From assembly GCA_963785725.1 (NCBI GenBank), contig CAWAWS010000008.1, positions 1-64,000 of the forward strand: 64,000 nucleotides of DNA, in the 5' to 3' direction. The notes beneath the pieces were generated by a model that worked only from the letters and a program-made list of their open reading frames with translations, had not been told where the DNA came from and made no database searches. A program made the position numbers and the translations under genes. Below, one piece after another: positions 1,381 to 26,284 of this stretch. Positions within the stretch are counted from its first letter, which is position 1, and each line of letters opens with the position of its first letter. The stretch is from an uncultured delta proteobacterium. GTDB taxonomy: Bacteria > Myxococcota_A > Polyangia > Palsa-1104.

Positions 1381-2349
1381 CTACGGCGCGACGACCACGT
1401 CCCAAGGCTCGCCGCCGACGGCGATGCGGCGGTCGACATTGCCGCTGACGACGTCGATGATCGACAGATTGTGGCCGCTGCCGTTGGCGCTGTAGAGGTG
1501 GCGGCCGTCGCGATCGAGCGCCAGGCCGAGCGGCGCTTGGCCGGCGCCGTCGATGCTGCGCAGCTGGCGTCGTGCGGCGACGTCGAGGATGGCGACGGAG
1601 GCGCCGCGGCCGCAGCTGACGTAGAGCGTGTGGCCGTCGGCCGATAGGGCGCCCCCCGAGGGGTGCACGCCGGCGGGCGCGGCCGAGTCCTGCGTGACGG
1701 CGATGTTGCCGAGCGGCGCCAGGCTCGCGGCATCGAAGACCGTGACCGCTTTGCCGCGCTCGCTCATGACATAGGCGGTGCGTCCGTCGTCGCCGAGGAC
1801 GACGGCGCGCGGGCCGGCGGCGACGGGGATGCGGGCCACGACGGCGAAGCTGTGCGCGTCGACGGCGACCACCTGGTCGGCGCCGGCGACGGAGACGAAG
1901 ACGAGCTGGCCGTCGGGGCGCACGGCCACGCCCGCGGGCTTGGCGCCGACGGCGACGCGACCGCGCGGCGCGCCCGTGACGGCGTCGACGGCGACCAGCT
2001 CGCCCGCGCCGTCCGTCGCGACCCAAAGCGTGCCGTCGACGCGCGACACGGCCAACGCCGCCGGCTTGCCGTCGACGAGCAGCTTACGCACCGTTCGTTG
2101 CCGCAGGTCGACGACGGCCACGCCGTCGGCGACCGCGACGTAGAGCCGTCGCTGCTCGGTCAAGAGCGCGAGGCCGCGCGGCTCGGCGCCGACGTCGATG
2201 CGGTCGAGCACCTGAGCGGCGCGCGGATCGACCGCGATCACCTGTCGGCCGGCGTGATCGCTGACCCACAGGCGCGGCCCGGGCGGCGAACGACGCGCGC
2301 AACCGAGCGACAAGCCGAGGCAAACGAGTAGCGCGCAGGTCTTGGCCAT
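1381..2349 (-). CDS. YVTN/YncE-type beta-propeller lipoprotein
   Basis: Lipobox SLGC; repeated blades such as IDVGAEPRGLAL, VAVGAKPAGVAVRPDG, IPVAAGPRAV, IAVGGEPWDVVV. Confidence 0.85.
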   Translation of the reverse strand: MAKTCALLVCLGLSLGCARRSPPGPRLWVSDHAGRQVIAVDPRAAQVLDRIDVGAEPRGLALLTEQRRLYVAVADGVAVVDLRQRTVRKLLVDGKPAALAVSRVDGTLWVATDGAGELVAVDAVTGAPRGRVAVGAKPAGVAVRPDGQLVFVSVAGADQVVAVDAHSFAVVARIPVAAGPRAVVLGDDGRTAYVMSERGKAVTVFDAASLAPLGNIAVTQDSAAPAGVHPSGGALSADGHTLYVSCGRGASVAILDVAARRQLRSIDGAGQAPLGLALDRDGRHLYSANGSGHNLSIIDVVSGNVDRRIAVGGEPWDVVVAP

Positions 2350-2382
2350 GCTCGATATGTACTACGGCCGCCGCCGCCGCCG

Positions 2383-4656
2383 TTACGGCAGATGCCAGGT
2401 GACGCGGCCGAAGACGCGGCGCAGCGGCGCATAGGCGCTCCCGACGACGCTGGCGGTGCCGATGCGATAGGCCCACAGCTCGTCGCCGAGGTTGAGGATG
2501 TCGACGGCTGCCTCGGGTTGGCCCCAGATGTCGAAGCGGTGGCGCAAGCTGACGTCGACGGTGGCGTGCTGCGGCAGCGCCAGCTGGTTGCTCTCGCCGG
2601 TACGCAAGCCGCTGCCGTATTGCACGAGCGCGCTCACGTGCGTGCGCTGCGCGCGATCGTGCAGATCGACGCCGGCATTGAAGGTGACGATCTGCTGGTG
2701 GTCGAACGCTTGCCAGCCGGCATACGCCAGCTGGTCGGCGTTGAAGAGATACTTCGAGCTGACGATGCCTTGGCCTTGCACCGCCTGCAGCGAGACGTTG
2801 CCGAACGTCGTCAGCCAGCGCGTCGGGATGAGCTGGAATTCGAGCTCGAGACCGCCGCCACGCCCACGCCGGTAGTTGTATTCGGCCTTGAGGTCGGTGT
2901 TGCCGATCTCCTCGTCGTCGAGCGGATGGTTCATGAGCCGGCCCCACAGCGTCACTTCCGTCTCCAGCCACGGCTTGGGCCGCACGGCCACGCCCACCTC
3001 CGCCGACCACGTCTCTTCGGGGCGGACGTCGAGCTCGAGCGGCTGGCCGGGCGGCACGAGGCCGAGCGCGCGCGCCGCCGTCGGCGCGTCCAGCGACGGC
3101 GGCTGCCACAAGTAGCCGACGAAGGCGTGCAGCCGCACCAAGCGGCCGAGATCGTAGGTCGCGCCCAGGCGTCCCGACGGCGTGTCGAAGGTGATGGTGC
3201 GCTCGGCGGGGACGGCGATGGCTTGCAGGTCGAAGCGCACGCCGCCGAGCAGCGTCAGGCGACCCCAGGTGAAGCGATCTTGCGCGAAGGCGACCACGCT
3301 GCCGATGTGCGTGCGATCGCGGCCGCCCAGCGTCAGCGACGGGTCGGGACCGCCGGCGGGCGCGCTGTCGTCGCGCGTGTATTGCTTGTAGCCGATGCTG
3401 TTCTCCTCGTCGCCGCCCTGCAGCCCGGCTTTGAGCAGGTGATGCTGACCGAGGAAGATCCAATAGTGCAGGATGGCGTTGTAGCTCTGCGCGCCGTGGT
3501 TGATGTCGCTGCAGATGGTGCCGGGATCGGCGGTGGCGCCGAGGCTGCGCGTCGGATCGCAGCTCAAGTCGCCTTCGGAGTCGCGCACGATGGCGGCGGC
3601 CAGCCAATTGCCGTGGGCGCCGCTGTGACGATAACTGACCGTGGCCAGAAGGTCGCGCTCGCGCTCGAGCGGGTTGGAGTCGAGCGGGATGTAGCGCGGC
3701 GGATCGTTGCCATACTGGTCGGGCCCGCGCACGGCGCCGGGCGGCGCGTCGGCGAGCGGCAGCAGCGTCGGGTCGAGCGGGATCTGCAGCGTCGACTGGC
3801 GGTAGGCGAAGGTCGCTTCCAGGCGATCGTGCGTCGTCAGACGATAGGCGGCGCGCGCCAACACCTCGCCGCTCTCGGTCTGGTCGTGGACGATGGGATT
3901 GGCGTCGGGCGTGTCGAGGCCGCGGTCGGTGCGCTCGTAGTTGCCGGCGACGAGCAGGCTGAAGCGGCCCCAGCCGGCCGCGTAGGCCGCCGACGGGCGC
4001 ACGGTGTCGTAGCTGCCGTAGGTGATCTTGGCGTAGCCGACCTGCCCGTGCTCGGGGAGCAGCGTGCTCAGCGCTGCGACGCCGGCGACGCCGCCGTATT
4101 CGACCGGCATGCCGCCGATGGTCAAATCGACGCGCGTGATGAGCTCGGTCGGGATCAGCGTCAACAGCTGGTTCGACAGCGCGGCCGGCAGCGGAACGCC
4201 GTCGAGCCAGTAGCTGATGTCTTCGTAGTTGCCGCGCACGTGGTTCTGGCCGAGCGCGTCGGCGGTGACGCCGGGCAGGACGCGCAGCGCCTCGGGCAGC
4301 TCGCGGTCGACGGCGCCGGGGATCATGCGCAGCGTCGCGGCGTCGAGCTGGAAGGTGCTGCTGCCGGTCTTCGGCGTGTCTCGGCTGCCGATGACGCTCG
4401 ACTGATACGCCGGAACGAGCGTCCCCGGCGCCGTCTCCATTGGCGTCGTCTCCGGCTGCGGCATTGGCGGCACCGTCGATGGCGTTGATGGGGTCGTCTG
4501 AAGCTGCGGCTGCGGCGTCGGTGTCGGCGTCGGCTGCGCCGTTGGCGTTGGCGTCGGCTGCGCCGTTGGCGTCGGTGTCGGCGTCGGTGTCTTGTCGGCC
4601 GAGGCGACACGCGCGAGGCCGAGCGCGAGCGCGAGCGTGAGGAGCCCGCGCGTCAT
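2383..4656 (-). CDS. TonB-dependent outer-membrane receptor
   Basis: Signal peptide, Pro/Thr linker, plug motif LRVLPGV...HVRG...YWLDGVPL, beta-barrel strands (AFAQDRFTWGRLTLLGGVRFD), C-terminal DILNLGDE...RRVFGRVTWHLP. Confidence 0.9.
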   Translation of the reverse strand: MTRGLLTLALALGLARVASADKTPTPTPTPTAQPTPTPTAQPTPTPTPQPQLQTTPSTPSTVPPMPQPETTPMETAPGTLVPAYQSSVIGSRDTPKTGSSTFQLDAATLRMIPGAVDRELPEALRVLPGVTADALGQNHVRGNYEDISYWLDGVPLPAALSNQLLTLIPTELITRVDLTIGGMPVEYGGVAGVAALSTLLPEHGQVGYAKITYGSYDTVRPSAAYAAGWGRFSLLVAGNYERTDRGLDTPDANPIVHDQTESGEVLARAAYRLTTHDRLEATFAYRQSTLQIPLDPTLLPLADAPPGAVRGPDQYGNDPPRYIPLDSNPLERERDLLATVSYRHSGAHGNWLAAAIVRDSEGDLSCDPTRSLGATADPGTICSDINHGAQSYNAILHYWIFLGQHHLLKAGLQGGDEENSIGYKQYTRDDSAPAGGPDPSLTLGGRDRTHIGSVVAFAQDRFTWGRLTLLGGVRFDLQAIAVPAERTITFDTPSGRLGATYDLGRLVRLHAFVGYLWQPPSLDAPTAARALGLVPPGQPLELDVRPEETWSAEVGVAVRPKPWLETEVTLWGRLMNHPLDDEEIGNTDLKAEYNYRRGRGGGLELEFQLIPTRWLTTFGNVSLQAVQGQGIVSSKYLFNADQLAYAGWQAFDHQQIVTFNAGVDLHDRAQRTHVSALVQYGSGLRTGESNQLALPQHATVDVSLRHRFDIWGQPEAAVDILNLGDELWAYRIGTASVVGSAYAPLRRVFGRVTWHLP
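4505..4590 (-). repeat. Coding Pro-Thr low-complexity repeat (PTPTPTAQ units) in the receptor N-terminus
   Basis: Repeated ggcgtcggctgcgccgttggcgt units; translation TPTPTPTPTAQPTPTPTAQPTPTPTPQPQ. Confidence 0.75.
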
Positions 4657-4868
4657 TGCGCCTTCACGGCGGCGGTGTCGTCGTCATCGCCGCCGTCGAC
4701 GCCGCCGTCGAGCGGGCAACCCGCGTCGGGCGCGGGAGTGCCGTCAGGACACTGCCAGCTCCAGTCGGAGGAGGGGATTGGCGTGCCCGAGTCGTCGTAG
4801 ATGCGGCAAGCAGCGGCGCCGATCGTGATCAGGCCTAGGACGACCCAGAGTAGGTTACGCAGGCGCAT
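4653..4868 (-). CDS. Small acidic lipoprotein, hypothetical
   Basis: MRLRNLLWVVLGLITIGAAAC lipobox; DAG/DGG acidic tail; stop overlaps the receptor ATG (ATGA). Confidence 0.65.
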   Translation of the reverse strand: MRLRNLLWVVLGLITIGAAACRIYDDSGTPIPSSDWSWQCPDGTPAPDAGCPLDGGVDGGDDDDTAAVKAQ

Positions 4869-4928
4869 CGAGGCTGCACGATAGCAGCTGCCGTGCGCCT
4901 CCACTCGCCGCCGCGCACGCAGCGCGGG

Positions 4929-5368
4929 TCAGAAGCCTTTGGGCGGGAGCGCGCGCAGATAGGCGACCAGCCCGCTCTGCTCGGCGGCGCTGAGCGTGAA
5001 CTCGTGGTTGGGCGCGATGAGCGGCGTGCGGTCGGGATACTGGCCGAGCGTCATGATGCCGACGAGGTCGGCGTCGGCGTAGAAGGCTTCGTACGTCGGC
5101 GTGTTGTCGACGCCGCCGGCGCCGTCGTGGCCGCCGAAGTCGGCGAACAGATTGAATCGGGAAGTCGAGCGGCGTGGCCGAGGCGACCAAGGAGGCGCAG
5201 CTGGGTCACCGAGCGGCCGTCGAAGCGGGCGGTCACCGACAGCTGATCGGCGACCGTGCCGCGTCCGCCGACGGTGAGGACGACGCCGTCCGGGTGGCAG
5301 CCGGCGGCGGGACGAACGGCAAGAACAGGCGCACGAACGGGACTGCGGACATGGATGACGGAAGCCAT
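4929..5368 (-). CDS. Hypothetical lipoprotein, frameshifted
   Basis: N-terminal MASVIHVRS...AAGC in one frame; C-terminal FNLFADFGGHDGAGGVDNTPTYEAFY...EQSGLVAYLRALPPKGF-stop in another frame with GC3-rich codons. Confidence 0.4.
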
Positions 5369-5507
5369 CGACAGCAAGAACCTGGCCGCTGACGGGCGCG
5401 CGCTTTCGCGTGGTTGCGGTGGCGCTCGGATGCGCCGCTGGGGAGCGCGGTTCCCAGCGCGGACAGCTGGGCGCGGACGCGAATGCCCGCTTGTCGCCGG
5501 CGTCCGA

Positions 5508-6713
5508 TCAGCGGTTGTCGAACGTGCGCGCGATCTTGAGCTGCGTCGCACCCTCCGCGAACGCATCGGCGGCCTGCGACAGCGCCTTCTGCGAGTGGCG
5601 CACCGTCACCTGGGCGCGAATGCGCGCCGCTCCCTCGGGCACGACCGGATGGCAAAAGCCGATGCAGAAGACGCCCTTGCCATAGAGGAAGTCGGTCAAG
5701 CGCTGTGCCGCGACGGCGTGGCGGGTCAACACGATGACCGCGGGGTGCTCGCCTTCGGCGGTCCACAGCCCGTGCTCGGCGAGCGCGTCGCGGAACAGCT
5801 TGACGTTCAGGGCCAGCTGCTCGCGCAGCTGCGGCTCGGAGCGCAACAGCCCGAGCGACGTGAGCGCCGCCGCCACCGACGCCGGCGGCAGCGCCGTCGA
5901 CGACAAATACGGGCGCGACTTCTGCCGCAGCCACGTCACCAGCTCCTTGCGCCCGGCGACGAAGCCGCCGGCCCCACCGCCGAGCGCGACGCCGAAGGTG
6001 CCGGTGACGAGGTCGATGCGATCGCCGAGGCCGAGCTGATCGTGCGTGCCGCGGCCGCGCTCGCCGACGATGCCGACGCCGTGGCTGTCGTCGACGACGA
6101 CGAGCGCGTTGTACTTCGCGGCCAGCCCGTAGATGTCGCGCAGGTTCGCCGTCAGCCCCGACAGCGGGAAGACGCCGTCGGTGACGATGACGCGGAAGCG
6201 GGCCGAGCGCGAGCGCCGCAAGCGGTCCTCGAGGTGCTCCATGTCCTGGTTGCGATAGGAGTAGACGCGCGCGCGGCACAGCCGGATGCCGTCGGCCAGG
6301 CTGGGTCGCACCAGCTCGTCGCAGAACAGATAGTCGCGATCGGAGAGCAGCGACTCGAAGAGGCCGGTGTTGGCGTGATAGCCGCTGGCGAAGACGAGCG
6401 CGTCGCTGGTGCCGAAGAAGCCCGCCAGCTCGCGCTCGAGCTCGGCGTGCAAGGGCAGCGTGCCGGCGGCCATGCGCGGCGAGGCGACGCCGACGCCCCA
6501 TTGCTCGATGGCGCGAATCGCCGCCTGCTTCACCGCCGGATGCTGCGACAGCCCGAGGTAGTCGTTGGACGCGAAGTTGGTGAGCTCGCGATCGCCGACG
6601 CGGATGGTCGGTCCGGGCGGCGTCGACAAGAGCGGCTCGCGACGCAACAGCCCCGCCTCTTCCAGGTGCTTGGCCTCGGTGCCGAGGAAATCGAGGAACG
6701 CGCTGTTTCTCAT
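5508..6713 (-). CDS. KBL/AONS (alpha-oxoamine synthase) family PLP-fold protein lacking the catalytic lysine; probable pseudoenzyme
   Basis: NFASNDYLGL, GTLPLHAELE, ANTGLFE, VTDGVF, VDDSHGVG, PVVPEGAARIRAQV are typical of kbl; the family motif GTLGKALGG reads GTFGVALGG. ATG at 6713 overlaps the upstream TGA. Confidence 0.85.
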   Translation of the reverse strand: MRNSAFLDFLGTEAKHLEEAGLLRREPLLSTPPGPTIRVGDRELTNFASNDYLGLSQHPAVKQAAIRAIEQWGVGVASPRMAAGTLPLHAELERELAGFFGTSDALVFASGYHANTGLFESLLSDRDYLFCDELVRPSLADGIRLCRARVYSYRNQDMEHLEDRLRRSRSARFRVIVTDGVFPLSGLTANLRDIYGLAAKYNALVVVDDSHGVGIVGERGRGTHDQLGLGDRIDLVTGTFGVALGGGAGGFVAGRKELVTWLRQKSRPYLSSTALPPASVAAALTSLGLLRSEPQLREQLALNVKLFRDALAEHGLWTAEGEHPAVIVLTRHAVAAQRLTDFLYGKGVFCIGFCHPVVPEGAARIRAQVTVRHSQKALSQAADAFAEGATQLKIARTFDNR

Positions 6714-7336
6714 TTGCCGCTCCCGGCCGGCTCGGTGGCGATGAACCATAAGAGCGACGACGCGCAGGCCTGCCACGGCATCGCGTTGTCGTCGCTCGCG
6801 GCGAGGCAGTAACGATCGATGGCGCGCCCGAGCTCGGCGTCGCTCGGCAAAGGACCCGTGCGCAGCCGGAAGTCGACGGCGAGCGCGCCGGCCAGGCGGC
6901 GGCTCTCGTCGGCCAGCGCGCGCCGGTAGTCTTTGGCGGTGGTCATGATCTGGTAGCGCTGCTCCGTCGGGATGAGCTGGGCGTCGCCGAGGAGCTTGGC
7001 GACGATGACGTCGAGGTCGACGGCGCAGCGCTGCGCCTCACCGCCGCGCTTCTTGCAATATTGGCGCGACGCGGTCATCAGGCACTCGAGCTTCAAGCGC
7101 TCGATCTCGGACGCGCAGCTCGAGCGGCTCATCACCTGCGCATAGTTGGTCGCTTGCGCCAGCGCTTCCGCCGGCGTCGCGCGCAGCGCCGCCAGCGCCT
7201 CGTCGAGGTAGGCGACCCGCGCGGCGGCGCCATACGGCTCATCGGCGCCGGCGACCGCGCCGCCGAGGACGACCGCGCAGCCGAGGACGAGCGCGCCCGC
7301 CAGGTTGCGGCGTCGGCGCGCGCCGGCGCGACTCAC
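6710..7336 (-). CDS. Exported helical Cys-rich hypothetical protein
   Basis: GTG start overlapping the upstream TGA; Arg-rich then hydrophobic signal (RRRRNLAGALVLGCAVVLGGAVAGA); six Cys in the mature part. Confidence 0.7.
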   Translation of the reverse strand: MSRAGARRRRNLAGALVLGCAVVLGGAVAGADEPYGAAARVAYLDEALAALRATPAEALAQATNYAQVMSRSSCASEIERLKLECLMTASRQYCKKRGGEAQRCAVDLDVIVAKLLGDAQLIPTEQRYQIMTTAKDYRRALADESRRLAGALAVDFRLRTGPLPSDAELGRAIDRYCLAASDDNAMPWQACASSLLWFIATEPAGSGK

Positions 7337-8859
7337 AGCCGCCCTCGCAGTCGAGCATACTGGCCGCGGAACAGCCCGACGTAATTGCGCAGATGCCGCT
7401 CGTAGGGATAGACCTCGAGCAGATCGGGCCGCGTCGTCATGAAGCCGGGGTCGAGGTAGATGTCGACCGCGTCGAGGCCGTACAGGCGCGTCAGAAGATA
7501 GTCGCGGCCGGCGAACGCGGCCTGCATGCCGCCGGTGGCGCGCGCGTCGAGGCCCGCTTCGCTGAGCAGGGCGCCATAGTGGAAGCCGGGCGCGAGCAGG
7601 CGCGCGACGGCGTCGTAGCGATCGGTGTACAGCGTCGCGCCGGCGGGCGAGGGTGGCACGTGCAGCTCGGCGACGGTGAAGTGGTGGCCGGCGAAGTCGA
7701 ATGGCGTCGACGTGAGCGCCTGCGCCGCGTCTTCGAAGTAGCACTGGAAGGTGATGAACGCGCCACTCGGATGTTGCCGCGACAGGCGTTCGCGCTCGAG
7801 CACGGTGGCGACGTCCGTCGACGCCAGGAGCGCGCGCGGATCGGCGGCCAGCCGCTTGCACGTATCGAGCGCCGCGCCCCAGTGCACGTGCACCTCGCGG
7901 CAGCTGGCGGCGGCCGGCTCGTAGCGGCTCTCGAACATCAGCTGCGCGACAACGTGCTCGAAGACCAGGCTCGCTTGCCGCTCGCCCGTCGGCGCCGGCC
8001 GGTGTGCCAGCGCGCGATAGCGCTCGCAGCTCGCCGCACGGAACGCGCCGTCGCCGGGATCGGGCAGGTTGGTCCACAGCTGGTGCGAGGCGTGCGGCGC
8101 CGTCGCCAGCATCTCCGCCTCGGCGCGTCCGCGCTCGCCGGCGTGGTCGAGCCGCGCGCCGAGGTCGCGCGTGTGCGGCTCGGCCGGGCTCGGGCGCGAC
8201 GTCAGCTTCGTCCACGTGCCGTCGAGGAGGCGCCAGGCGTAGTGCAGCGCCGGCTCATCGCGCTGCCGTCGCGTGCACGGCGGCGCCGCTTGCGCCCGGC
8301 GCTCGGCCGGCGCGCATTGGCCGAGCGACTTCACGTAGCCGAGCGCGAAGGCGCGCTGCATGAGCGCGCAGCCGGGCACGTTGGGATCGGCCGGCGGCGC
8401 CGGCGCCGCCGGATCGGCGCACCAGGTCGCGCCGTACTGGCCGGCCGGCTGCACGAGACCGAGGAGCAGCCCGAGCGCGCGCGCGTCGATGCAGGCGAGC
8501 GCCAGCAGCAGCGCGATGGCCACGCAGACGGCGCGATGGAGCCGCGGGCCCAAGTCGAACGCCTCGCCGCGGTTGTCGCCGAGCGTGATGCGCCGCGCGT
8601 CGCCGCCGACGAAGTGCGCCTCTTCCGCCGTCCACTGGTCGCGCTTGGACGCGAAGCGGAAGTAGTGCAGGCTCGGCTCGTTGAGGCGCCAGAAGCGGAA
8701 GACGAGCGTGCCCACGACGACGGCGAAGCAGCCGACGAAGAAGAGCGTGCCGGCGCCGCGGCTGGCGAGCCGCTCGGGCGCGAGCACCCCGAAGCTGAGG
8801 GCGGCGGCGACACCGGCGACGAGCAGCGTCAGCGTCACCAGCGTCTTGGCGCCGATCAC
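7333..8859 (-). CDS. Membrane protein (about 3 TM) with a large Cys-rich extracytoplasmic domain, hypothetical
   Basis: GTG at 8859 overlapping the motB-like TGA; two N-terminal hydrophobic helices, a third at AVCVAIALLLALACI, then a ~370-aa domain with 8 Cys. Confidence 0.75.
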   Translation of the reverse strand: MIGAKTLVTLTLLVAGVAAALSFGVLAPERLASRGAGTLFFVGCFAVVVGTLVFRFWRLNEPSLHYFRFASKRDQWTAEEAHFVGGDARRITLGDNRGEAFDLGPRLHRAVCVAIALLLALACIDARALGLLLGLVQPAGQYGATWCADPAAPAPPADPNVPGCALMQRAFALGYVKSLGQCAPAERRAQAAPPCTRRQRDEPALHYAWRLLDGTWTKLTSRPSPAEPHTRDLGARLDHAGERGRAEAEMLATAPHASHQLWTNLPDPGDGAFRAASCERYRALAHRPAPTGERQASLVFEHVVAQLMFESRYEPAAASCREVHVHWGAALDTCKRLAADPRALLASTDVATVLERERLSRQHPSGAFITFQCYFEDAAQALTSTPFDFAGHHFTVAELHVPPSPAGATLYTDRYDAVARLLAPGFHYGALLSEAGLDARATGGMQAAFAGRDYLLTRLYGLDAVDIYLDPGFMTTRPDLLEVYPYERHLRNYVGLFRGQYARLRGRL

Positions 8860-9455
8860 GGCAACTCTTTGGCGCGGCTGACCAGCTTGTCCTCGACGGT
8901 GATGCGGCGGTTCTTGGCCTTCGCCTCGCGCACCGCCGCCTGCTCGGTCGTGGTCAGCGTGCCGCCGAACGCCGGCACCTCGATGGCCGGCGTGTTGTCG
9001 GCGTGCGTGCAGATGACGACGTGATCGGGCACGTCGCTGCCGTAACGGGCGATCTCGTGGTAGGCCGCCATCGCGCGCTCGTAGCCGAGCTGCAGGTTCT
9101 TCTCCTTCTGCCCTTCGTTGTCGGTGTGGCCGTGGATGACCAGCATGCGCTTTTGCAGCGGCCCGACGTCGAAGTTGAGCACCGTGTGCGTCTCGTCGTT
9201 GAACAGCTTCGACATGATCTCGTGGCCGCCGTCGCTGAGCTCGCTCTTTCCCGTCGGAAACAGCACGTCGCCGGGCAGCGTCACCATCTTCACCGTCTCG
9301 GTGCCGACGGTGTCCGAGAGGCCGCTCTTGCGCGGCCGCGACTGCACCGCCCACAAGACGACGAAGAAGATCATCACGTTCGTCATCAGATCGATGTAGA
9401 CGATCTGCCAGATGTCGAACGCCCGCCGCTGCCGCGACTCGCGCCGGCGGATCAC
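8856..9455 (-). CDS. motB: MotB-like stator/OmpA-domain protein
   Basis: TM motif WQIVYIDLMTNVMIFFVVLWA with the conserved Asp (9390-9392); OmpA-like peptidoglycan-binding motifs DVLFPTGKSEL, GHTDN, NLQLGYERA, KNRRITV. Confidence 0.85.
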   Translation of the reverse strand: MIRRRESRQRRAFDIWQIVYIDLMTNVMIFFVVLWAVQSRPRKSGLSDTVGTETVKMVTLPGDVLFPTGKSELSDGGHEIMSKLFNDETHTVLNFDVGPLQKRMLVIHGHTDNEGQKEKNLQLGYERAMAAYHEIARYGSDVPDHVVICTHADNTPAIEVPAFGGTLTTTEQAAVREAKAKNRRITVEDKLVSRAKELP

Positions 9456-10270
9456 TTCTGGACCTCGATGAGCGCCTGGTTCTCGAACACGACCTTGAGC
9501 GCGCGGCACAAGGTGTCGTAGTCGTAGTCGAGCCCCTTCAGTCGCTGCTCGAAGCGCGTCGCCGAGATCTTGTAGAAGGCCGAGAAGACGACGCCGTAGA
9601 GCGTGCACTTGAGCGCCAGCGCCAGCTGCGGCGCGATCGACTCGATGGTGACGGCGCCGCCGAGGCTGTCGAACATGCTGATGAGGCCGAGGACGGTGCC
9701 CATGAGGCCGAACAGCGGCATGGCGCCGGCCACGAAGTCGAGGTGCGCGCCCGAGTGATCGTAGAGCTCGTGGCACTCGACGTAGTACGAGTAGACGACG
9801 TACTCGGCGTAGTCGAAGCTCTTGCCGCGCTCCTGCATGGTGACGAGGTCGCGCACGAGCGGGTTGTCGGGCAAGGGCACGCGCGCGCCCTTGTCGACGG
9901 GACCGACGCGCATCTCGCCGTCGCGATCGCGGCGCATGGTGAGCCGCTCCTCGAGCGCCGCCAGCGTCTGCTGCAGCTGCGCCGCCTTCGGCGTCAGGTG
10001 TCGCGACGAGAAGAAGACCGTCATCGTCGACAGCATCTGCTTGCCGATCTCGGCGCCGGTCGCATAGACGAGCAGCGCCAGCGACACCAGCATGAGCGCG
10101 ACGAAGAAGTTCTCGGTGACGAAGAAGACCGCCGCCACCGCCAGGATCGCGCCCATGCCGACGAGGCCGACGACGCCGGCGCCGGCCGCCTTCTTGCTGA
10201 CGGCGAGCGTCGACTTGTTGATGACCTCGAAGAAGCCGGACGGGCTGTTGCTCTGTCGTGGGTCGCTCAT
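9452..10270 (-). CDS. motA: MotA/TolQ/ExbB proton-channel family protein with MotA-like 4-TM topology
   Basis: Two N-terminal TMs, a cytoplasmic domain, then AMPLFGLMGTVLGLISM and ALALKCTLYGV; directly upstream of the motB-like gene. Confidence 0.85.
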   Translation of the reverse strand: MSDPRQSNSPSGFFEVINKSTLAVSKKAAGAGVVGLVGMGAILAVAAVFFVTENFFVALMLVSLALLVYATGAEIGKQMLSTMTVFFSSRHLTPKAAQLQQTLAALEERLTMRRDRDGEMRVGPVDKGARVPLPDNPLVRDLVTMQERGKSFDYAEYVVYSYYVECHELYDHSGAHLDFVAGAMPLFGLMGTVLGLISMFDSLGGAVTIESIAPQLALALKCTLYGVVFSAFYKISATRFEQRLKGLDYDYDTLCRALKVVFENQALIEVQK

Positions 10271-12534
10271 CGGATGCCGCTCCTTGCCGCCGGCGCGGAA
10301 GCCCGCATGCGCTCGACGTAGATGGGGTGATAGTCGAAGGCGTCGCGCACGGCGACGTAGAGCGCGCCGCCGGCGACGACCGCCAAGACGAGCGCCACGG
10401 CCGTGCCGAGCGCGCGATCGGCGCGCCGCGCCAACGGCGCGTGGAAGAGCCGCGACAGCCACAAGAGGCGATTGCGCGGCGTCGCCGCCAACAGCTGCCG
10501 CTCGACGGTGGGGATGGCCTGGCGATCCATGTGCTCGAGCAGCTCCTTCGACGTCTGGATGAGCTCGGGCGCGTTGGCGCGCGTCGTCAGCGACGGCTCG
10601 GCGCCGCCGCGCAGGAACGCGAGGTACTGAATGAGCGGGTGCAGGCCCTGGTTGAGCGCCGCCTCGGCGTCGGCCACGCGCGCCGCCGGGCCCGACAGAA
10701 AGCGGTCGTAGACGTCGACGGTGGCGGCGACGAGCCAGCGGCGCAGGCGCGACGCCTTGCGTCCCGTGAGCGCGAACCCGAGCCGCAGCGTCGTCAGAAA
10801 CGTGTCGCGGCTGCGGAAGCGGCCGAGCTCGCGCAAGAGCGCGGCGAACAAGAAGTCCTTCTGCGTCGGGTCGCTGTCGTCGATCTCGTCGTCGTCGACG
10901 TCGCGGGTAAAGGCGGCGTAGTGCTCGGTCAAGAGCTGGCGCACGATCTCGAAGTCTTCGTTGCCGTCGGCGATGAGCGGCACGCCGTCGCTGGCCGGCT
11001 GCGGCATGACCCAGCCGAGCAAGGTCGCATTCTCGCCGAGGACGCGTGGCGCCGCGGCGCGCGGCCGCGCCGGCGCCACCGTCAGCTCGTGGCGGCGCTG
11101 CTCGGCCGAGCGCTCGTGCAAGGTGGCGTCGCGCCCGCGCTTGCGCCGGTCGTCGACGGCCGGCTGGATGAAGCCGAAGGGCAGCTCTTCCTGATTGACG
11201 GTGCGCTCGGGCAGCTCGGTCTCGTCGGGCAGCTGGCCGAGCGCGGCGTCACGCACCAGCTCGCCGACGAGGATGCGCGGGCGCGCGAAGCCGCCGCCGT
11301 AGCTGACGACGCCGGGCAGCGCGCTCGGCAGAAACAGCGTGCGCTCGAACAGGGTCGGGTCGATGTCGACGCCGTTGCGGCGGATGTAGCCGCGGAAGTA
11401 GCGCTTGATGGTCGCATGCCAGGGATTGCGCGCCGTCGCCGCACCGATGACGAGGTGGACGTCGAGGTAGGCCGCCACGTTGTCGACGAGCGTGAGCAGC
11501 CAGAAGTGGACGAAGAGCCCGACGGTGGGCAGCGCCAACATGAAGGTCGCGCGCCGCGGCAGGCCGAGCGCGTCGCAGGCGACGAGCGCGAGCCAGAACA
11601 GCGGCAGGTAGGCGACGAGCAGGCAGGCGCGCAAGAACGCGAGGATGAGCCACGACTGCAGCAGCGGCCAGATCGCGTCGTGGCGCGCCTGACCGAGGCC
11701 ATGGATCGGCGACAGGATCCAGCTGACGTGAATGAGCGCGAACGCGCCCCAGATCATGCCGGCGGCGATGGCGACGGCGAGCTCGCCGGTCGCGCCGGCG
11801 TCGGCGACGGCGGCGACGGCCCGCGCCGGCAGATCCGTCGTCACGACGGCGACGGCGACGAGGCCGAGTGCGGCGATGAGCGCGCCCGACCACTTCCACG
11901 ACGCCGGCCGGCCGCGCCGCGCCAGCTCGCGCGCGCTGACGAGCAGGCGCGTCCACAAGGGCGGCAGCGCCACGAGCAGCATGAGCGCCACGAGCAGCGT
12001 CGCCAACAGCCGCGGATGGCCGGCCGGCGCCGTCGCCGTGACGGCTGCGGGCGCCGCTGGCGCGCCGCGCTGCGGCCGCTCGTCGACGAGGCCGCCGCGC
12101 TGCACGATCGGCCGCGCCAGCTCGCCGATGTGCCGTCGCAGCGTGGCCGCGTCGACGTGCGCCACGGCCAGGCTGCCGTCGAAGGCGCGGCCGCGCATCC
12201 AGGTGGCGTAGACGTCGTAATCGAGGAGCCCCTGGCGCAGGCTGCCGAGCACGACGATGTCGACGCCGGCGTCGCGGTAGCGATCGACGAGGCAGCGCGG
12301 GTCGCGGCCGGGACAGGCGCGCGCGTCGAGCTTGTCGGCGAGCGTGACCGAATGGAAGCGCGACAGCTCGCGCGCGATGGTCTGCTCGAGCGCGGCGGCG
12401 AACCAGCCGTCGCCGGCCGACGGCGCCACGTCGACCACCACCGCGACGGCGGACGGCGCGGCCGCGGCGCGGCCGGCAGCCACGACCCCGACGACGAGAG
12501 CTACGACAGCGGCGCGCACGATCGGATCACACAA
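10267..12534 (-). CDS. Large polytopic membrane protein with an N-terminal periplasmic domain and a degenerate M48/M56 peptidase-like domain
   Basis: Signal peptide (likely GTG at 12519), CPGRDPRC-containing domain, about 5-6 TMs, then SYGGGFARPRILV...LFAALLRELGR...ARVADAEAA...TPRNRLLWL, and a C-terminal TM. Confidence 0.7.
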   Translation of the reverse strand: MCDPIVRAAVVALVVGVVAAGRAAAAPSAVAVVVDVAPSAGDGWFAAALEQTIARELSRFHSVTLADKLDARACPGRDPRCLVDRYRDAGVDIVVLGSLRQGLLDYDVYATWMRGRAFDGSLAVAHVDAATLRRHIGELARPIVQRGGLVDERPQRGAPAAPAAVTATAPAGHPRLLATLLVALMLLVALPPLWTRLLVSARELARRGRPASWKWSGALIAALGLVAVAVVTTDLPARAVAAVADAGATGELAVAIAAGMIWGAFALIHVSWILSPIHGLGQARHDAIWPLLQSWLILAFLRACLLVAYLPLFWLALVACDALGLPRRATFMLALPTVGLFVHFWLLTLVDNVAAYLDVHLVIGAATARNPWHATIKRYFRGYIRRNGVDIDPTLFERTLFLPSALPGVVSYGGGFARPRILVGELVRDAALGQLPDETELPERTVNQEELPFGFIQPAVDDRRKRGRDATLHERSAEQRRHELTVAPARPRAAAPRVLGENATLLGWVMPQPASDGVPLIADGNEDFEIVRQLLTEHYAAFTRDVDDDEIDDSDPTQKDFLFAALLRELGRFRSRDTFLTTLRLGFALTGRKASRLRRWLVAATVDVYDRFLSGPAARVADAEAALNQGLHPLIQYLAFLRGGAEPSLTTRANAPELIQTSKELLEHMDRQAIPTVERQLLAATPRNRLLWLSRLFHAPLARRADRALGTAVALVLAVVAGGALYVAVRDAFDYHPIYVERMRASAPAARSGIR

Positions 12535-14743: not shown

Positions 14744-17700
14744 TCAGGACGCCGGGCGTGCCGGCGCGGTGGTGCCGCCGCCGCGCAGCTGCTCGACCTT
14801 GGCTCGCGCGCCCCAGCGCTCGTAGGCGGCGATGGCGTCGCGCCGGCAGTCGGCCGCGGTGTGCGGCTCGCCTTGCGCCGTGGCGTGGCGCGCGGCCAGC
14901 TCCAGCGCCAGCGCCTCGACGTCGACGGCGCCGCTGCGTCGCGCCACGAGGACCGCGGCCTGATAGCCGGCGGCGGCGGCGACGGCGCGGCCGGCCACAC
15001 GCGCCGCCTCGGCCTGCGCCAGCCGATGGCGCGCCGCGAAGTTCTCCGGGCACTCGGCCGCCCAGCGCCGCAGCTGCGCCACGCCGTCGGTCAGCCAGCG
15101 CTGCAGCCGCCGGCGCTCGTTGGTCGCGCCGTCGGTCAGGCGCTGCGCGGCGATGAGCACGCGGAAGAACGTGCGCTTGACCTGCGCCAGGCTGGCGAAC
15201 ACCGAGCGCTCGCGCCGATCGGCCTCCAGCATGTTGCGATAGGCCGCCGCGTAGTCGCCGAAGTAATAGCCGATGATCGCCTTGCCGCCGAAGTAGGTGG
15301 CCAGCGCCAGCGGCGTGTGCTCGTCGCTGAGCGAGGCGCGCAGCTCGGCTTCGGAGCGATCGGGCAACCTGAACGAGCGCGTCGCCGGACCGAGCGGCTG
15401 GCGCAGCGACTCGTAGAGGCCGAGCCGCAAGGCGTTGGCGGCGCTGAGATCGACGTCGCGCTCCTGTCGCGCCAGCTCGGCGGCGGTGCGCGCGACCTGC
15501 AAGAGCTCGTCGAGGTTCGGCGCGCTGAGCTCGAGCATCATGGCCAAGTTGCCGAGCACGAACAGGCGATAGGTGCGATCGCCGAGCCGCACGCTGGCGT
15601 CGTAGGCGCGGCGCAGCCTGAGCTCGGCCTGCGCGAACGGCCGCACCCACGGGATCAAGAAGGCGCCGCTCATGTAGAGCACCTTGGCCTCGAGGTCGCC
15701 GCCGCCGAAGCGCTCGTTGAGCTGGATGGCCAGCTCGCCCAGCTCGAAGCCCATGCGATAGCGCTGAAAGCCGCCGGTCATGACCATGCCGTAGCCGACG
15801 AAGCCATAAGCCGATTCCGCCGCCATGCCGTGCTCGAGCGACAGGCTGGCTACCTTGAGCAGCACGAAGGACAACAGCGTGCGATCGACCATGTACGCGG
15901 CCGGCGCCAGCGCCGTCAGAAGCTGCATGGCGCAGCGCGTGCGCGGATCGTTCGAGATGGGCAGCTCGGCCAGCTCGGCCAGCGTGCGCCGGCCTTGGCG
16001 CAGGCGGAGCAGCGCCAGCTCCTTGACGATCGACAGCTTGCCCGGCGCCGCCGGCAGCGCGACGCCGAGCGCCTGCAGGCCGGCGCGCGCCGAGTCGATG
16101 GCGTCGCGGAATTCGCCGCGCAGCCGCTGGACGGTCATGCGCAGCGCGTACAGCTCGGTGCGCTCGCCGTCGTCGCGGGCGCGGACGAGCGCGGTCGTAA
16201 AGGCGGCGTTGGCCGCATCGACTTGGCCCAAGAGGTAATAGAGCTCGATGCGCTCCTTGGCGAAGGCGAAGCGCAGATCGTCGGCGTCGGCGAGCGCGGC
16301 CAGCGTCGGCGCGCCGTCGGTGACGTGCTTGAGCGCGGCGGCGAAGGCGGTGGCCAGCTTGGCTTTGCGCGCCGCGCGCAGGATGAGCGCGAGCAGCTGG
16401 CGACGCTCGGCGGTCGAGTCGATCAGCGCGACGCCGCGCTGCAGGTGGCTGACGATGGTGAACAGCGCGTCGTCGAGCGCATCGGCGGGCGTGTCGGCCA
16501 AGAGGCTGCGTCCGATCGACAGGTGCAGCGCCAGCCGGCCCACGTCGCCGCGCTCGTGCGCGCCGGCGCGCTCCCGGTCGTCGCCGGCGCCGCGGCTGAC
16601 GATGGCCTCGCGCAGCCGGTCGTGATAGGGCTCGACCAGCCGCGCGTTGCCGCGTCGCGTGACGCGAATGAGGTGCGTGACGCGCAAGGCGCTCATGAGC
16701 TGCAGCGCGCCGCCGACGTCGAGCCCGGCGGCGCGCGCCAGGACCTGGAACTTGACCGGCGCGCCGGCGAGGGCCACGCACTCCATGAAGCGGCGCGCCG
16801 TCTCGTCGAGCTCGCTGACCCGCTGCCACAAGACCGCTTGCAAGCTCGAGGCGCCCGGCCGCTGGTCGCGGCTCGGCTGTCGTCGACTGCGCGCCAGCTC
16901 CGAGAGGAAGAGCGGATGGCCGGCGGCCTCGCTCAGCATGCGATCGACGTCGTCGAGGGCGAGCGGGCCGCCGTCGCCGTCGCGACCCAGGCGCGCCACG
17001 AGCGCCGCCGCCTCGTCACGCGACAGGCCGCCGAGTCGGATGTGGCGGCGCGACACGTCGCGGGCCGTGGGCGCGCTCACGCTCGCGGGATCGCCGGCGG
17101 GCGCGAGGCGACGCGTGGCCAACAGCATGCACGGCGGCCCGTCGGGCGCGAGCAGGTGCGCCAGCAGATCGAGGCTGTCCTGATCGGCCCACTGCAGGTC
17201 GTCGATGAAGAGGACGAGGTGCAGCCGCTCCGACAGCGCCGTCAAGAGCCGCGCCAGCTCTTGGAACGCGCGCTCACGCAGCGCCAGCGGGTTCTCTTGC
17301 GCGCCCAGCGGCTCTTGCGCGGCCACCGCCGGCACCAGCCGCAGCACGGGGAAGAGGGTCCCGAGGTGGCGCAGGTCGAAGCCCAAGAGCGGGAGCGCCT
17401 CGGTCTCGTCGAGCGCGTTGAGATAGGCGGCCAGCGCGTCGATGACGCTGTCGAAGGCCTTGAACGGCACCTCCTCCTGCTCGTAGCAGCGCCCGGCCAA
17501 GACCACCGCCGCCGGGTCGAGCGCCACGTGCCGCTCGAGGAAGCGGCGCACCAGCAGGCTCTTGCCCACGCCCGGCTCGCCCTCGACGATGACCAGCTCG
17601 CGCGTGCCCGCTTGCACGCGGCGATAGGCGTCGACCAGCTCGGCCAGCTCGGCGCCGCGACCGACGAACGTCGCCGACAGATTGCTCGACGTCTCGTCGG

Positions 17701-18622
17701 CGGTCGCGCTCGCGTCGTCGTCGGCCTCGAGCGCGCGCAGCACCGCGTCGCCGCGCGGCCGCTCGGCCGGCTCGCGCGCCAACAGCGCCTGGCACAGCGC
17801 ATCGAGATCGGGCGGCACGTCGCTGACGAGCGAATGCGGCGCCGGCGCCGGACGCGTGCGCTTGGCCTCGACCACGACCGGCGGCGGGCCGACGAACGGC
17901 AACGCGCCGGTGAGCGCCAGAAACAGCACGCAGCCGAAGGCGTACCAATCGGCCTCGGGCCCGACCTTGCGCTCGTCGATCTGCTCGGGCGCGATGAAGT
18001 TCGGCGTGCCGCACAAGGCGCCGGTGTCGACGCCCACCTTCTCCATCAGCCCGAAGTCGAGCAGCACCACATGGCCGTCGTCGCGCACCATGACGTTGGA
18101 CGGCTTGATGTCGCGGTGGACGCTGCCGGTGCGATGGAGCGCGTGGATCGCCTGCGCCAGCTGGCGGGCGGCGGCGCGCAGCCGCGCCTCGTCGTAGCCG
18201 CGGGCGTGGTCGCGCTCGGTCGCGGCCGGCCGCGCTGCCGCCGCGAACGATTCGGCCGGACCGTTGGGAATGACGACCGGCAAGGTCGGCCCTTCGTCGG
18301 GCAGCGGCACCGCCGGCAAGCGCACGTAGGTCAGAAAGTCGCAGCCGCGCACCAGCTCCATCGTGAAGAACCACTGATCGGCGTCGCAGTAGAGCTCACC
18401 GAAGTGGATGAGGTTGGGATGCTGGATGTCGGCCAGCTCGCGGAACTCGTGCTTGAGGCGAAAGAGCAGATCGGCGCTGAAGTCGCGCAGCGTCTTGATG
18501 GCGACGTGGGTGTCGGTCTCGCGATCGAGCGCCTCGTAGACGACGCCCATGCCGCCCGAGCCGAGCTTGCGGAGCAGCTCGTAGCGACCGGAGGCGAGCG
18601 ATTGCTTCATCATCGGCGCCAT
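14744..18622 (-). CDS. Ser/Thr kinase fused to an AAA (STAND-type) ATPase and TPR-like C-terminus
   Basis: LGSGGMGVVY, VAIK, HRDIKPSN, DFG, APE; Walker A GEPGVGKS; Walker B LFIDDLQWAD; GHPLFLSEL. Confidence 0.92.
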   Translation of the reverse strand: MAPMMKQSLASGRYELLRKLGSGGMGVVYEALDRETDTHVAIKTLRDFSADLLFRLKHEFRELADIQHPNLIHFGELYCDADQWFFTMELVRGCDFLTYVRLPAVPLPDEGPTLPVVIPNGPAESFAAAARPAATERDHARGYDEARLRAAARQLAQAIHALHRTGSVHRDIKPSNVMVRDDGHVVLLDFGLMEKVGVDTGALCGTPNFIAPEQIDERKVGPEADWYAFGCVLFLALTGALPFVGPPPVVVEAKRTRPAPAPHSLVSDVPPDLDALCQALLAREPAERPRGDAVLRALEADDDASATADETSSNLSATFVGRGAELAELVDAYRRVQAGTRELVIVEGEPGVGKSLLVRRFLERHVALDPAAVVLAGRCYEQEEVPFKAFDSVIDALAAYLNALDETEALPLLGFDLRHLGTLFPVLRLVPAVAAQEPLGAQENPLALRERAFQELARLLTALSERLHLVLFIDDLQWADQDSLDLLAHLLAPDGPPCMLLATRRLAPAGDPASVSAPTARDVSRRHIRLGGLSRDEAAALVARLGRDGDGGPLALDDVDRMLSEAAGHPLFLSELARSRRQPSRDQRPGASSLQAVLWQRVSELDETARRFMECVALAGAPVKFQVLARAAGLDVGGALQLMSALRVTHLIRVTRRGNARLVEPYHDRLREAIVSRGAGDDRERAGAHERGDVGRLALHLSIGRSLLADTPADALDDALFTIVSHLQRGVALIDSTAERRQLLALILRAARKAKLATAFAAALKHVTDGAPTLAALADADDLRFAFAKERIELYYLLGQVDAANAAFTTALVRARDDGERTELYALRMTVQRLRGEFRDAIDSARAGLQALGVALPAAPGKLSIVKELALLRLRQGRRTLAELAELPISNDPRTRCAMQLLTALAPAAYMVDRTLLSFVLLKVASLSLEHGMAAESAYGFVGYGMVMTGGFQRYRMGFELGELAIQLNERFGGGDLEAKVLYMSGAFLIPWVRPFAQAELRLRRAYDASVRLGDRTYRLFVLGNLAMMLELSAPNLDELLQVARTAAELARQERDVDLSAANALRLGLYESLRQPLGPATRSFRLPDRSEAELRASLSDEHTPLALATYFGGKAIIGYYFGDYAAAYRNMLEADRRERSVFASLAQVKRTFFRVLIAAQRLTDGATNERRRLQRWLTDGVAQLRRWAAECPENFAARHRLAQAEAARVAGRAVAAAAGYQAAVLVARRSGAVDVEALALELAARHATAQGEPHTAADCRRDAIAAYERWGARAKVEQLRGGGTTAPARPAS

Positions 18623-18688: not shown

Positions 18689-19819
18689 TCATTCGTGCGC
18701 GGCGCCCGTGAAGAACGCGATGAGGCCGAGCGGGGCGCGGTCGTCGTAGAGGAGAGCGAGCAGGCGGTGCGCCTCTGCGGCTTCGGCCTGGCTGCGCGGG
18801 AACAGCGCCTGCTCGTACTCGGTGAGCGCCGCTTCGATGTCGTCGGGGTGCGCGGCGATCGCCTTGCCGAGCTCGGCGCCGTCGAACATCGCCAGGTTCG
18901 CGCCCTCGCCGGACGGCGGCATCAGGTGCGCGGCGTCGCCGAGGAGCGTCACGCCGGGCACGCGGTCCCAGCGGTGCCCGATCGGCAGCGTGTGGATCGT
19001 GCGCGGGACGGGCGCGGTCTCGCCGTCGGTGATCAGCGCGGTGAGCGCCGGCGCCCAGCCCGCGAACTCGGCCGCGACCGCCGCCGTCGCCGCCGGTGCG
19101 TCGGTGAAGTCGATGCCGCGAACCACGAAGCGGGGCGTTGCAGCGCGACGTAGGTGTGCAGGACGCCGTCCGGCTCGCGGTGCGCGTGGATCCCCTTGCC
19201 CGGGGCGAGCGCGAACATCGCGCCTCCGCCGACCGCCGCGGCGCTCGCCGCGTGCCGCTCGTCGGCGTCGTACAGGTACGTCTCGATGAACGAGGTGCCG
19301 ACGTACTCGGGCTGGGCGTCGGAGAGCAGCGGCCGGACCTTCGACCAGGCGCCGTCCGCGCCGACGAGGAGGTCGGTCCGAACCGTCGTCCCGTCGGCGA
19401 AGGTCAGCTCGTGCCGGCCCTCGCCGAGCGCGCGAACCGCGGTGAGCTTCTTGCCCCACGCGATCGACGCCGCCGGCAGCGAGTCGACGAGCAGGCGGCG
19501 CAGGTCGCCGCGAAGAACCTCGGGCCGACCGCCGCTGCCGTCGTCGGGCTCGTCGAGCAGCACCGTGCCGTGTCGGTCGAGCCCGCGCAACGCCTCGCCG
19601 CCCTCGTGGATGAGCCCGAGGAAGCGGTCGTAGAGCCCCGCGGCCTTGAGCGCGAGCTGCCCGTTGTGCTGGTGGATGTCGAGCATGGCCGCCCTGGGTG
19701 CGGGCGTCGGCGGAGGCGTCCGCCTCGTAGATCGTGGCCGGGATGCCGTGGACGTGCAGGACGCGGGCGAGGGTGAGGCCGCCGAGGCCGGCGCCGATGA
19801 TCGTGACCTGCGTCGTCAT
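18689..19819 (-). CDS. TetX-like FAD-dependent monooxygenase (two frameshifts, ~19690 and ~19120)
   Basis: IIGAGLGGL, RTQGG-MLDIH, RPEVLRGDLR, LVGADGAWSKVR, LLGDAAHLMPPSGEGANLAM; ORFs 18689-19819 and 19033-19686 combine into one protein. Confidence 0.85.
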   Translation of the reverse strand: MTTQVTIIGAGLGGLTLARVLHVHGIPATIYEADASADARTQGGHARHPPAQRAARAQGRGALRPLPRAHPRGRRGVARARPTRHGAARRARRRQRRSARGSSRRPAPPARRLAAGGVDRVGQEAHRGSRARRGPARADLRRRDDGSDRPPRRRGRRLVEGPAAALRRPARVRRHLVHRDVPVRRRRAARGERRGGRRRRDVRARPGQGDPRAPRAGRRPAHLRRAATPRFVVRGIDFTDAPAATAAVAAEFAGWAPALTALITDGETAPVPRTIHTLPIGHRWDRVPGVTLLGDAAHLMPPSGEGANLAMFDGAELGKAIAAHPDDIEAALTEYEQALFPRSQAEAAEAHRLLALLYDDRAPLGLIAFFTGAAHE

Positions 19820-21475: not shown

Positions 21476-22771
21476 TCAAGCGCGCGGCAGCGCGATCCAC
21501 AGCCGCCGTTCGCGCTTGCCGTTATGGACGCCGACGGCGCCGCCGCACGCTTCGACGCGTCGGCGCGCCGTCGCCAGGCGCAGGTCGATGCCGGGATGGA
21601 GCGAGCCGGGATTCTGCAGCTGCGGATCGAACGGGTCGCTGAACCGATCGCCGTCAGGCGCCGAGCGCACCGAGATGCGCACGTAGCGCGCCGACGTCTG
21701 CACCTCGATGCCGTCGAGCGCGACGACACCGGGCGGCAAGCCGCCGCCGAACAGGTCGGCGAGCAGCTCATGCAGCACCGGCTCGGCGCACCCGACGTGC
21801 AGCCCGGGATCGACGTCGACTTTGATCCCGGCCCGGCTCGCGGCGGCGGCGAGCGGCGATGACAGCGGCGTGCGCGGCGCGGGCTCGGCGGATGGAATGG
21901 CCGCCTTGGCAAAGGTCGTCAGCCGCTCGATGCTCTGCTCGATGCGCACGAGCGAGCGCTCCGCCCGCGCCAGCGCGTCGCGGCGGACCCCGTCGTCGTG
22001 GCCCTCCTCCTCGAAGATGCGCAGCGCCACGCGAATCGGCATCAGCGGCGTGGCGATCTCGTGACCGACCTGGATCGCCAGGTGATCGAGCTCGCGGGCG
22101 CGCCGCCGCAGCGTCGTGACGAAGCGCTCCACCGTGCGTGCCGCCAAGAGCGTCGAGACGAACGCGACGAGGATGGCGAGCCCGTCGAGCGCGAAGGCGT
22201 AGACGTTGCGCCGCCGGCTGCCCGTCACGATGGCGTGCGCGCCCGCCTCCAGCTTGCTGCGGTTGAGATCGGAGATTTCGCGCAACGACGCTTCGAGCTG
22301 ATCGATAACGCCGTCGACCCGCTGTTGCGTGGCTGCGCGCGCCGACGTGGGCAGCGGGCGCGCCGTCGGCTGGTCGACGAGCCGGTCGAGCTGCTTCAGC
22401 TCGGTGGGAACGCGCGCGAACAGCGCTTGCTCGCCCGAGTAGTCGGGCAGCTTCTCGTACGCGGCGAGCACGGCGTCGATCTGCCGCCGCTCGTCGCGGT
22501 AGCGCGAGCGCGCGCGCGCCAGTGCCGCCTCGTCCTCGGCGGCGATGACGCCGTCGGCGGCGCGCCCGAGCCCGCGCAGCTCGGCGCGGGCCTCGGCCAG
22601 CTCGGCGATGCTCGGCGCCGCGTTGGAGGCAATATCGAGCGCGTCGAGATCGCTGGTCAGGCGCAGCTGCGAATAGATGGTCGCGGCGACGAAGATGGCG
22701 ACGACGAGGCCCATCGTCCGCGGCAGCATGTGCCCAAACGCGGGCGCTCGATGAGGCCGACGCCCCGGCAT
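21476..22771 (-). CDS. Membrane sensor kinase-like protein with a degenerate HATPase domain
   Basis: TM, four-helix periplasmic domain, TM, H-box GHEIATPL; N/G1/G2 boxes not conserved; start uncertain (22771 or 22729). Confidence 0.65.
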   Translation of the reverse strand: MPGRRPHRAPAFGHMLPRTMGLVVAIFVAATIYSQLRLTSDLDALDIASNAAPSIAELAEARAELRGLGRAADGVIAAEDEAALARARSRYRDERRQIDAVLAAYEKLPDYSGEQALFARVPTELKQLDRLVDQPTARPLPTSARAATQQRVDGVIDQLEASLREISDLNRSKLEAGAHAIVTGSRRRNVYAFALDGLAILVAFVSTLLAARTVERFVTTLRRRARELDHLAIQVGHEIATPLMPIRVALRIFEEEGHDDGVRRDALARAERSLVRIEQSIERLTTFAKAAIPSAEPAPRTPLSSPLAAAASRAGIKVDVDPGLHVGCAEPVLHELLADLFGGGLPPGVVALDGIEVQTSARYVRISVRSAPDGDRFSDPFDPQLQNPGSLHPGIDLRLATARRRVEACGGAVGVHNGKRERRLWIALPRA

Positions 22772-26181: not shown

Positions 26182-26225
26182 GGCCTCAGCCTAAGTGCGG
26201 GCCGCGAATGTCACGTTGCGCCAAG

Positions 26226-26241: not shown

Positions 26242-26284
26242 GTTGACCGGCGCGTTGCATCGCCTCTGCTAGCATTCAGCGAAA

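Follow-up and report, generated by a model that had tools for sequence, protein, structure and literature searches.

To our knowledge, MotA/MotB-type motors drive few machines, namely the flagellum, the Ton and Tol systems, Agl gliding and Zorya. A six-gene operon from an uncultured delta proteobacterium raises the question of which of these, if any, its MotAB-like motor serves. The operon occupies positions 5508 to 12534 of the window, by which we mean the 64,000-nucleotide stretch at positions 1 to 64,000 of contig CAWAWS010000008.1 (assembly GCA_963785725.1). A first-pass annotation made from the sequence alone described it as a translationally coupled, stand-alone motor accompanied by two Cys-rich envelope proteins and two apparent pseudoenzymes, and proposed that it fits no known system. 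By the tests we ran, the operon does not belong to the flagellar, Zorya or Ton/Tol/Agl systems; it is apparently an undescribed, conserved multi-gene system built on a known motor type. The reading we favor, with a probability of roughly 40%, is a signal relay across the inner membrane that is ion-driven and anchored in the cell wall.

All six open reading frames (ORFs), which lie on the minus strand, and the five 4-nucleotide overlaps that join them were recovered as first mapped. Gene A (10267..12534) encodes a membrane protein of 755 amino acids (aa) whose start is uncertain (738 aa in a database gene call). It is followed by the 272-aa MotA-like subunit (9452..10270), the 199-aa MotB-like subunit (8856..9455), gene D (7333..8859, 508 aa), gene E (6710..7336, 208 aa) and a 401-aa paralogue of KBL (glycine C-acetyltransferase; 5508..6713). 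The junctions read ATGA at 10267-10270 and 6710-6713, and GTGA at 9452-9455, 8856-8859 and 7333-7336. Overlap at every junction, as seen in this operon, is not universal among relatives, in which overlaps occur at 18/70 A/motA, 69/88 motA/motB, 57/73 motB/D, 43/44 D/E and 26/39 E/kbl junctions. Pfam recognizes the motor pair (MotA_ExbB on one subunit, MotB_plug and a weak OmpA match on the other) and a pyridoxal phosphate (PLP)-enzyme fold (Aminotran_1_2 in the KBL paralogue), and nothing else among the six proteins. Genes A, D and E have no Pfam match below E 0.1, and no NCBIfam model reaches its cut-off for any of the six.

We examined conservation across 94 loci, comprising 12 genome loci and the best 80 of 88 metagenome loci from MotA scans, two further genome regions and the window, with one near-duplicate (L036) dropped. 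Wherever the contig leaves room, motA is accompanied by motB (86/86), A (68/68), D (63/65), E (43/43) and the KBL-like gene (36/39), so the partners are linked to the motor as far as contigs allow. The complete set is present in 34 loci, some of them cut by contig ends. The two loci lacking D are a short contig (L108) and one that looks chimeric (L102). In the latter, motB runs into unrelated low-complexity sequence (L102:1260-3167). The core is five genes, the KBL-like gene having been lost in two lineages. Dozens of soil and marine bacteria keep the six genes together; their loci span 34-73% GC and their MotA subunits share 49-92% identity, and gene order is constant except in two Oligoflexales loci, where A is placed after E. 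The closest loci carry the titles Polyangia, Myxococcaceae/Archangiaceae, Deltaproteobacteria and Oligoflexales, and Bdellovibrionales is the label of a single D relative. When clustered at 50% identity, the D family by itself yields 238 representatives. The operon is also found on a 4.4-kb contig (L023) with a Terriglobales title, where MotA is 80% identical to that of the window, reflecting either mis-binning or transfer.

The motor itself retains the expected machinery. The MotA-like subunit matches PF01618 at 58 bits (cut-off 22.9), and its family of ~270-aa proteins has a layout of four transmembrane (TM) helices with ~35 residues past the last one and no long tail. P185, T192 and T223 are invariant in all 91 sequences and align with PomA P151, T158 and T186, which, in the available text of PMC10374538, form a Na+ site with T185. 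The T185 equivalent is Thr in 58 sequences, completing a PomA-type Thr triad, Cys in 31 (including the window) and Asn in 2. In the MotB-like subunit, Asp22 (codon 9390-9392) of the TM motif WxxxYxD is kept in 82/82 sequences, and the wall-binding GHTD motif and Arg127 in 81/82, with an OmpA Pfam score of 24.8 bits that falls slightly below the cut-off of 27.2. These features uphold the original assignment of a MotAB-like motor, and by homology we predict a MotA5:MotB2-type assembly with ion-driven rotation.

An accessory flagellar stator or motility motor would share the four-TM A subunit, the Asp-bearing MotB-type TM motif and the OmpA-like domain. In a FastTree phylogeny of a ~110-residue core with 21 family members, read without a clade-rejection test, the operon MotA proteins form a single clade (support 0.99) on a long stem of 2.0 substitutions per site. 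The clade does not nest among flagellar stators; it lies outside both the flagellar and the TolQ/ExbB/AglR-like groups, as a weak sister of the former (0.70), a position that, together with strong FliG matches in 6 of 15 operon genomes, speaks for a motility role. FliG matches are weak only in four of the remaining genomes and missing in five; in particular, FliG was not detected in G004 (92% complete), G299 (97%) or G379 (97%). The window's own genome encodes FliG, flagellin and two ordinary stator pairs on another contig (C29, ~27000-64200). Of the 168 predicted flanking proteins, 94 were scanned, and flagellar or gliding genes were absent among these 94. The operon differs further in its invariant Lys221 in the last TM helix of MotA, in its four fixed non-flagellar partner genes, and in its MotB, where ~20 residues separate the TM helix from the OmpA-like domain with no plug or long linker; the MotB_plug match spans model positions 13-41 of 58 only. 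The available text of PMC12505986 treats an OmpA domain together with a plug as traits of the flagellar (FIT) clade. We consider a motility motor very improbable, and its flagellar version is largely refuted. As a separate observation, four genomes of the same genus (53-99% complete) yielded no match to FliG, unlike the window's own genome.

The plug-less anchor instead resembles that of Zorya. The best library match of MotB is ZorB1 (51 bits, E 2.5e-14), and in the available text of PMC11946911 ZorB is likewise plug-less, with its TM helix close to the peptidoglycan-binding domain. Against the NCBIfam ZorB1 model, MotB scores 17 bits, far below the cut-off of 400. A Zorya-like anti-phage or anti-predator system, in which envelope breach engages the motor and recruits cytoplasmic effectors, would also match a stand-alone motor with cytoplasmic partners and the operon's rare, patchy distribution: it occurs in 4/61 relatives and 3/401 phylum-sample genomes (the window's own genome counted in both), and two genomes of the same genus (93% and 99% complete) yielded no copy. 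The four-TM MotA, however, differs from the three-TM ZorA and lacks the ZorA tail. The best ZorA model reaches E 0.094, and the placement of ZorA in our tree is unreliable because the candidates aligned poorly. No ZorC/D/E-type effector was found among the six genes or the 94 flanking proteins. The operon has no nuclease or helicase, and its further members are a pair of Cys-rich periplasmic proteins and two degenerate enzymes. Defence had been listed among the possible roles; only 6 of the 94 flanking proteins matched PADLOC, mostly through generic domains. Operon GC is level with the surrounding DNA, MotA is highly conserved, and no relative was found in viral contigs. Taken together, these results make a Zorya-like system unlikely.

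Gene A was modelled with a confidence of 85.5 by predicted local distance difference test (pLDDT). Its topology, inferred from hydropathy and charge, comprises a signal peptide, a periplasmic domain, five TM helices, a cytoplasmic domain and a sixth TM helix that runs into a long C-terminal helix. By structure comparison, residues 28-152 (12079..12453) adopt a TolB-N/FlgT/PelC/CsgG-like fold. The matches include the LPHT-ring chain of 8z5n, which we take to be FlgT (Z 11.2, root-mean-square deviation (rmsd) 3.3, 126 aligned), TolB 1c5k (Z 10.6, rmsd 2.8, 112 aligned) and PelC (Z 9.8), with a Foldseek probability of 1.0 and E ~0.01. A Cys pair in this domain is kept in 82/89 sequences. Two loci encode minimal A proteins of 249-264 aa (L092:9277-10023 and L099:727-1518) that consist of a signal, the TolB-N-like domain, two hydrophobic segments and the C-terminal helix; they amount to a natural deletion of the dead-protease domain described below. 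Since these shortest versions retain the TolB-N-like domain and C-terminal helix, the periplasmic part of A is its conserved core.

These features raise an alternative: a force transducer of the Ton/Tol kind, serving import, export or remodelling of the outer envelope, in which the motor would be linked to D/E or an outer-membrane partner through the C-terminal helix and TolB-N-like domain of A. ExbBD-TonB, TolQRA-TolB and AglRQS belong to the same motor superfamily, the TolB-N/FlgT/PelC/CsgG fold serves in outer-membrane assemblies, the minimal A proteins keep exactly the two elements concerned, and unusual motor-linked transducers appear in the available text of PMC12204202. ExbD and TolR, in contrast, lack an OmpA-type wall anchor such as the operon's B subunit carries, MotA lies outside the TolQ/ExbB/AglR-like group, and the TolB-N-like domain here forms part of a polytopic inner-membrane protein. 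Separate TolQ/ExbB/AglR-like pairs are encoded in the window's own genome, the flanking genes examined include no recurrent beta-barrel or TonB-type gene, and the cytoplasmic dead enzymes would be left unexplained. We judge this alternative unlikely.

The first of those enzymes is the cytoplasmic domain of A. All five structural matches listed for residues ~200-701 are M48/M56 proteins: 3c37 (Z 8.2, rmsd 4.2, 168 aligned), ZMPSTE24 (7.8), BepA (7.3), Ste24p (7.0) and BlaR1 (6.6). An hhalign profile comparison sets an RELGR motif on the HExxH helix at E 0.015 (controls 0.11-0.65), or at E 0.0015 after post hoc removal of an insertion in A. HExxH itself occurs in 0/89 A sequences, and an acidic motif is kept immediately before RELGR. 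Searching PDB sequences with a profile of A returned nothing meaningful, as did scanning 42 A sequences with Pfam, and ESM Atlas gave unnamed clusters under 0.8 only. With moderate confidence, we assign residues 356-701 (10432..11469) to an M48/M56-like zincin fold without the zinc motif, in line with the pseudoenzyme first proposed. Like BlaR1/MecR1 and the M48 peptidases HtpX, Ste24 and BepA, A would combine a membrane protein, an exported domain and a zincin fold; it differs in lacking HExxH, in domain order and in its linkage to a motor.

Genes D and E bear out the annotation of two Cys-rich proteins. The model of D (pLDDT 89.7) displays three TM helices and a predicted periplasmic Cys-rich domain, whose eight Cys are conserved in 96-98 of 98 relatives. 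His259, His260, His302, His326, His489 and Asp466, conserved in 72-94 of the 98, might form a candidate metal site. HExxH is absent from all 98 D sequences. Metzincins recur in structure comparisons at Z 4.2-5.4 (best 5.4, rmsd 4.1 over 130), a weak lead in which residues 125-252 are barely covered, and Foldseek searches of PDB and viral libraries returned nothing at E 0.001. E carries an N-terminal hydrophobic segment and six Cys that are invariant in 41/41 sequences, with no usable ESM Atlas match.

The second apparent pseudoenzyme is the KBL paralogue, which scores 432.8 bits on the NCBIfam KBL model (cut-off 460) and is sister to canonical KBL (tree support 0.76-0.78). Site positions were set by alignment to 1fc4 and 3tqx, using what we take to be the residue numbers and roles of E. 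coli KBL. In the window copy, Val replaces the PLP lysine (codon 5988-5990) and Arg the stacking His, as expected of a pseudoenzyme, but the label does not extend to the whole family. Of the 32 copies, 9 keep the Lys, 10 the stacking His and 5 the second His; each of the nine Lys-keeping copies holds the stacking His and none holds the second His. The fold is retained along with the substrate-carboxylate Arg (30/32) and an Asp (30/32), and an invariant Cys354 is new. The ratio of nonsynonymous to synonymous substitution rates (dN/dS) is 0.11-0.24 in five pairs, near the 0.19-0.26 of MotA, so the paralogue is under purifying selection and not decaying. A canonical KBL is encoded elsewhere in 4/5 operon genomes tested, and was not found in the window's own genome.

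A metabolite-gated ion valve is a further alternative: descended from KBL, strongly conserved and equipped with the substrate-carboxylate Arg and the Asp, the paralogue would sense glycine, threonine-pathway intermediates or acyl-CoA and, via A, gate the ion flow through the motor. The KBL-like gene is, however, the sole dispensable member of the operon, and the two disulfide-rich periplasmic proteins, unneeded for a valve, are kept in every lineage. This explanation is improbable.

Where the KBL-like gene is missing suggests instead a pairing with the cytoplasmic side of A. Both minimal A proteins lack the cytoplasmic domain, and L092 has no KBL-like gene in the 7.3 kb downstream. In the two Oligoflexales loci (L031/L032) the acidic motif of A is reduced to three acidic residues, compared with 4-7 in 29/29 KBL-adjacent loci, and the KBL-like gene is absent from both genomes (completeness not given), which have canonical kbl only, beside a tdh-like gene. 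Because the gene is lost where the cytoplasmic domain of A is deleted or its acidic motif eroded, this co-loss suggests that the two proteins may pair. A basic helix of the paralogue carries a charge of +1 to +5, versus 0 to +2 in canonical KBL. A lysine-less enzyme subunit has a precedent in LCB1/SPTLC1 of serine palmitoyltransferase.

A candidate output lies in the flanks. In nine flanking proteins, an alpha/beta hydrolase, an ABC1 kinase or a vWA domain is followed by a fused Ribosomal_L12 domain at the C-terminus. Searching with a profile made from these nine finds such tails in 21 loci, among them 20 of the 42 whose flanks reach at least 1.5 kb, and in 0/99 control loci (337 kb). The tailed neighbours occur on each of the three main MotA branches, on either side and either strand, with one more downstream of D-E-KBL in L212. 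Extra non-ribosomal L12 domains are present in 6/15 operon genomes, and a second match in 3/57 relatives without the operon. L12/ClpS domains are described in vWA components of predicted conflict systems in the available text of PMC7159879, a point that also favors the Zorya-like alternative, and L12/ClpS fusions are recorded in other contexts (among PMC12204202, PMC7159879, PMC12419801, PMC11946911 and PMC10374538). Related proteins were also seen: tandem L12 C-terminal-domain (CTD) proteins (G455:C245:2832-3341 and G456:C20:11195-11644), a stand-alone L12-CTD protein adjoining the operon (L024:6278-6604), and ABC1 kinases directly upstream of A with no L12 tail detected (L088:3001-4095 and L090:6467-7753).

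In the signal relay that we favor, the plug-less MotB would bind peptidoglycan while ion flow would drive rotation of the MotA ring. The receivers of an envelope perturbation or ligand would be D, E and A's TolB-N-like domain, and A, arranged like a BlaR1-type receptor with a dead protease, would pass the signal inward. Its acidic cytoplasmic motif would bind the KBL paralogue, the cytoplasmic enzyme folds likely serving as docking sites and not as catalysts. In about half of the loci, output would go to the co-located L12-CTD-tailed ABC1 kinases, vWA proteins or hydrolases. More tentatively, and as a possibility we lean against, the operon could be a motor-energised receptor representing a new class of rotary machine, with the dead zinc-protease fold and repurposed PLP enzyme as a cytoplasmic hub and the L12-CTD-like domain as a portable address tag that brings in interchangeable kinases, vWA proteins and hydrolases.

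Several observations weigh against the relay. The Z-scores of the M48-like domain (6.6-8.2) are middling, the nine KBL copies that retain Lys and stacking His may still be active, the basic-helix contrast with canonical KBL is modest, and the co-loss of the gene with features of A represents two lineage events at most. L12-tailed neighbours are lacking in 22/42 loci, and tails above the cut-off are absent from the window's own genome, which excludes such neighbours as an obligatory output. Many operon loci are also longer than the control loci, and related loci do not count as independent.

No described system matched the operon in the profile libraries or in the literature searched, although the sequence lists of PMC12505986 or of comparative-genomics papers may include a member. 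The plug, consistent co-occurrence with FliG, ZorA tail, Zorya effectors and ExbD/TolR-type B subunit that would tie it to a known machine were each wanting, which agrees with the initial view of its novelty. Because it fits no known machine and pairs a stator-like MotA with a ZorB-like anchor, the operon bears on motor diversification. It comprises three protein families without a Pfam model and two enzyme folds retained minus their catalytic motifs, and it suggests, for L12-CTD fusions outside the ribosome, a role that can be tested. The machine is directly testable, since it is encoded by six genes in 7 kb with a predicted one-residue off switch, MotB Asp22.

Three proteins, P0196, P0225 and P0314, are apparent fusions of adjacent operon genes. 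The first two have the look of frameshift artefacts and were left out of the evidence. Downstream of the operon, window positions 1381-4656 (minus strand) hold ORFs that by eye resemble a 757-aa TonB-dependent receptor and a 322-aa YVTN beta-propeller. Neither recurs in the flanks of other loci, and the receptor-like ORF was for this reason left out of the system. ORFs that appear to be split by frameshifts at 84-1285, 4855-5372 and 18689-19819 suggest assembly indels outside the operon, whose six genes are intact. GC dips from ~0.71 to 0.62-0.65 at 22000-27000 and 29000-32000. Upstream, positions 14744-18622 (minus strand) encode a 1292-aa protein that by eye resembles a Ser/Thr kinase with an ATPase domain.

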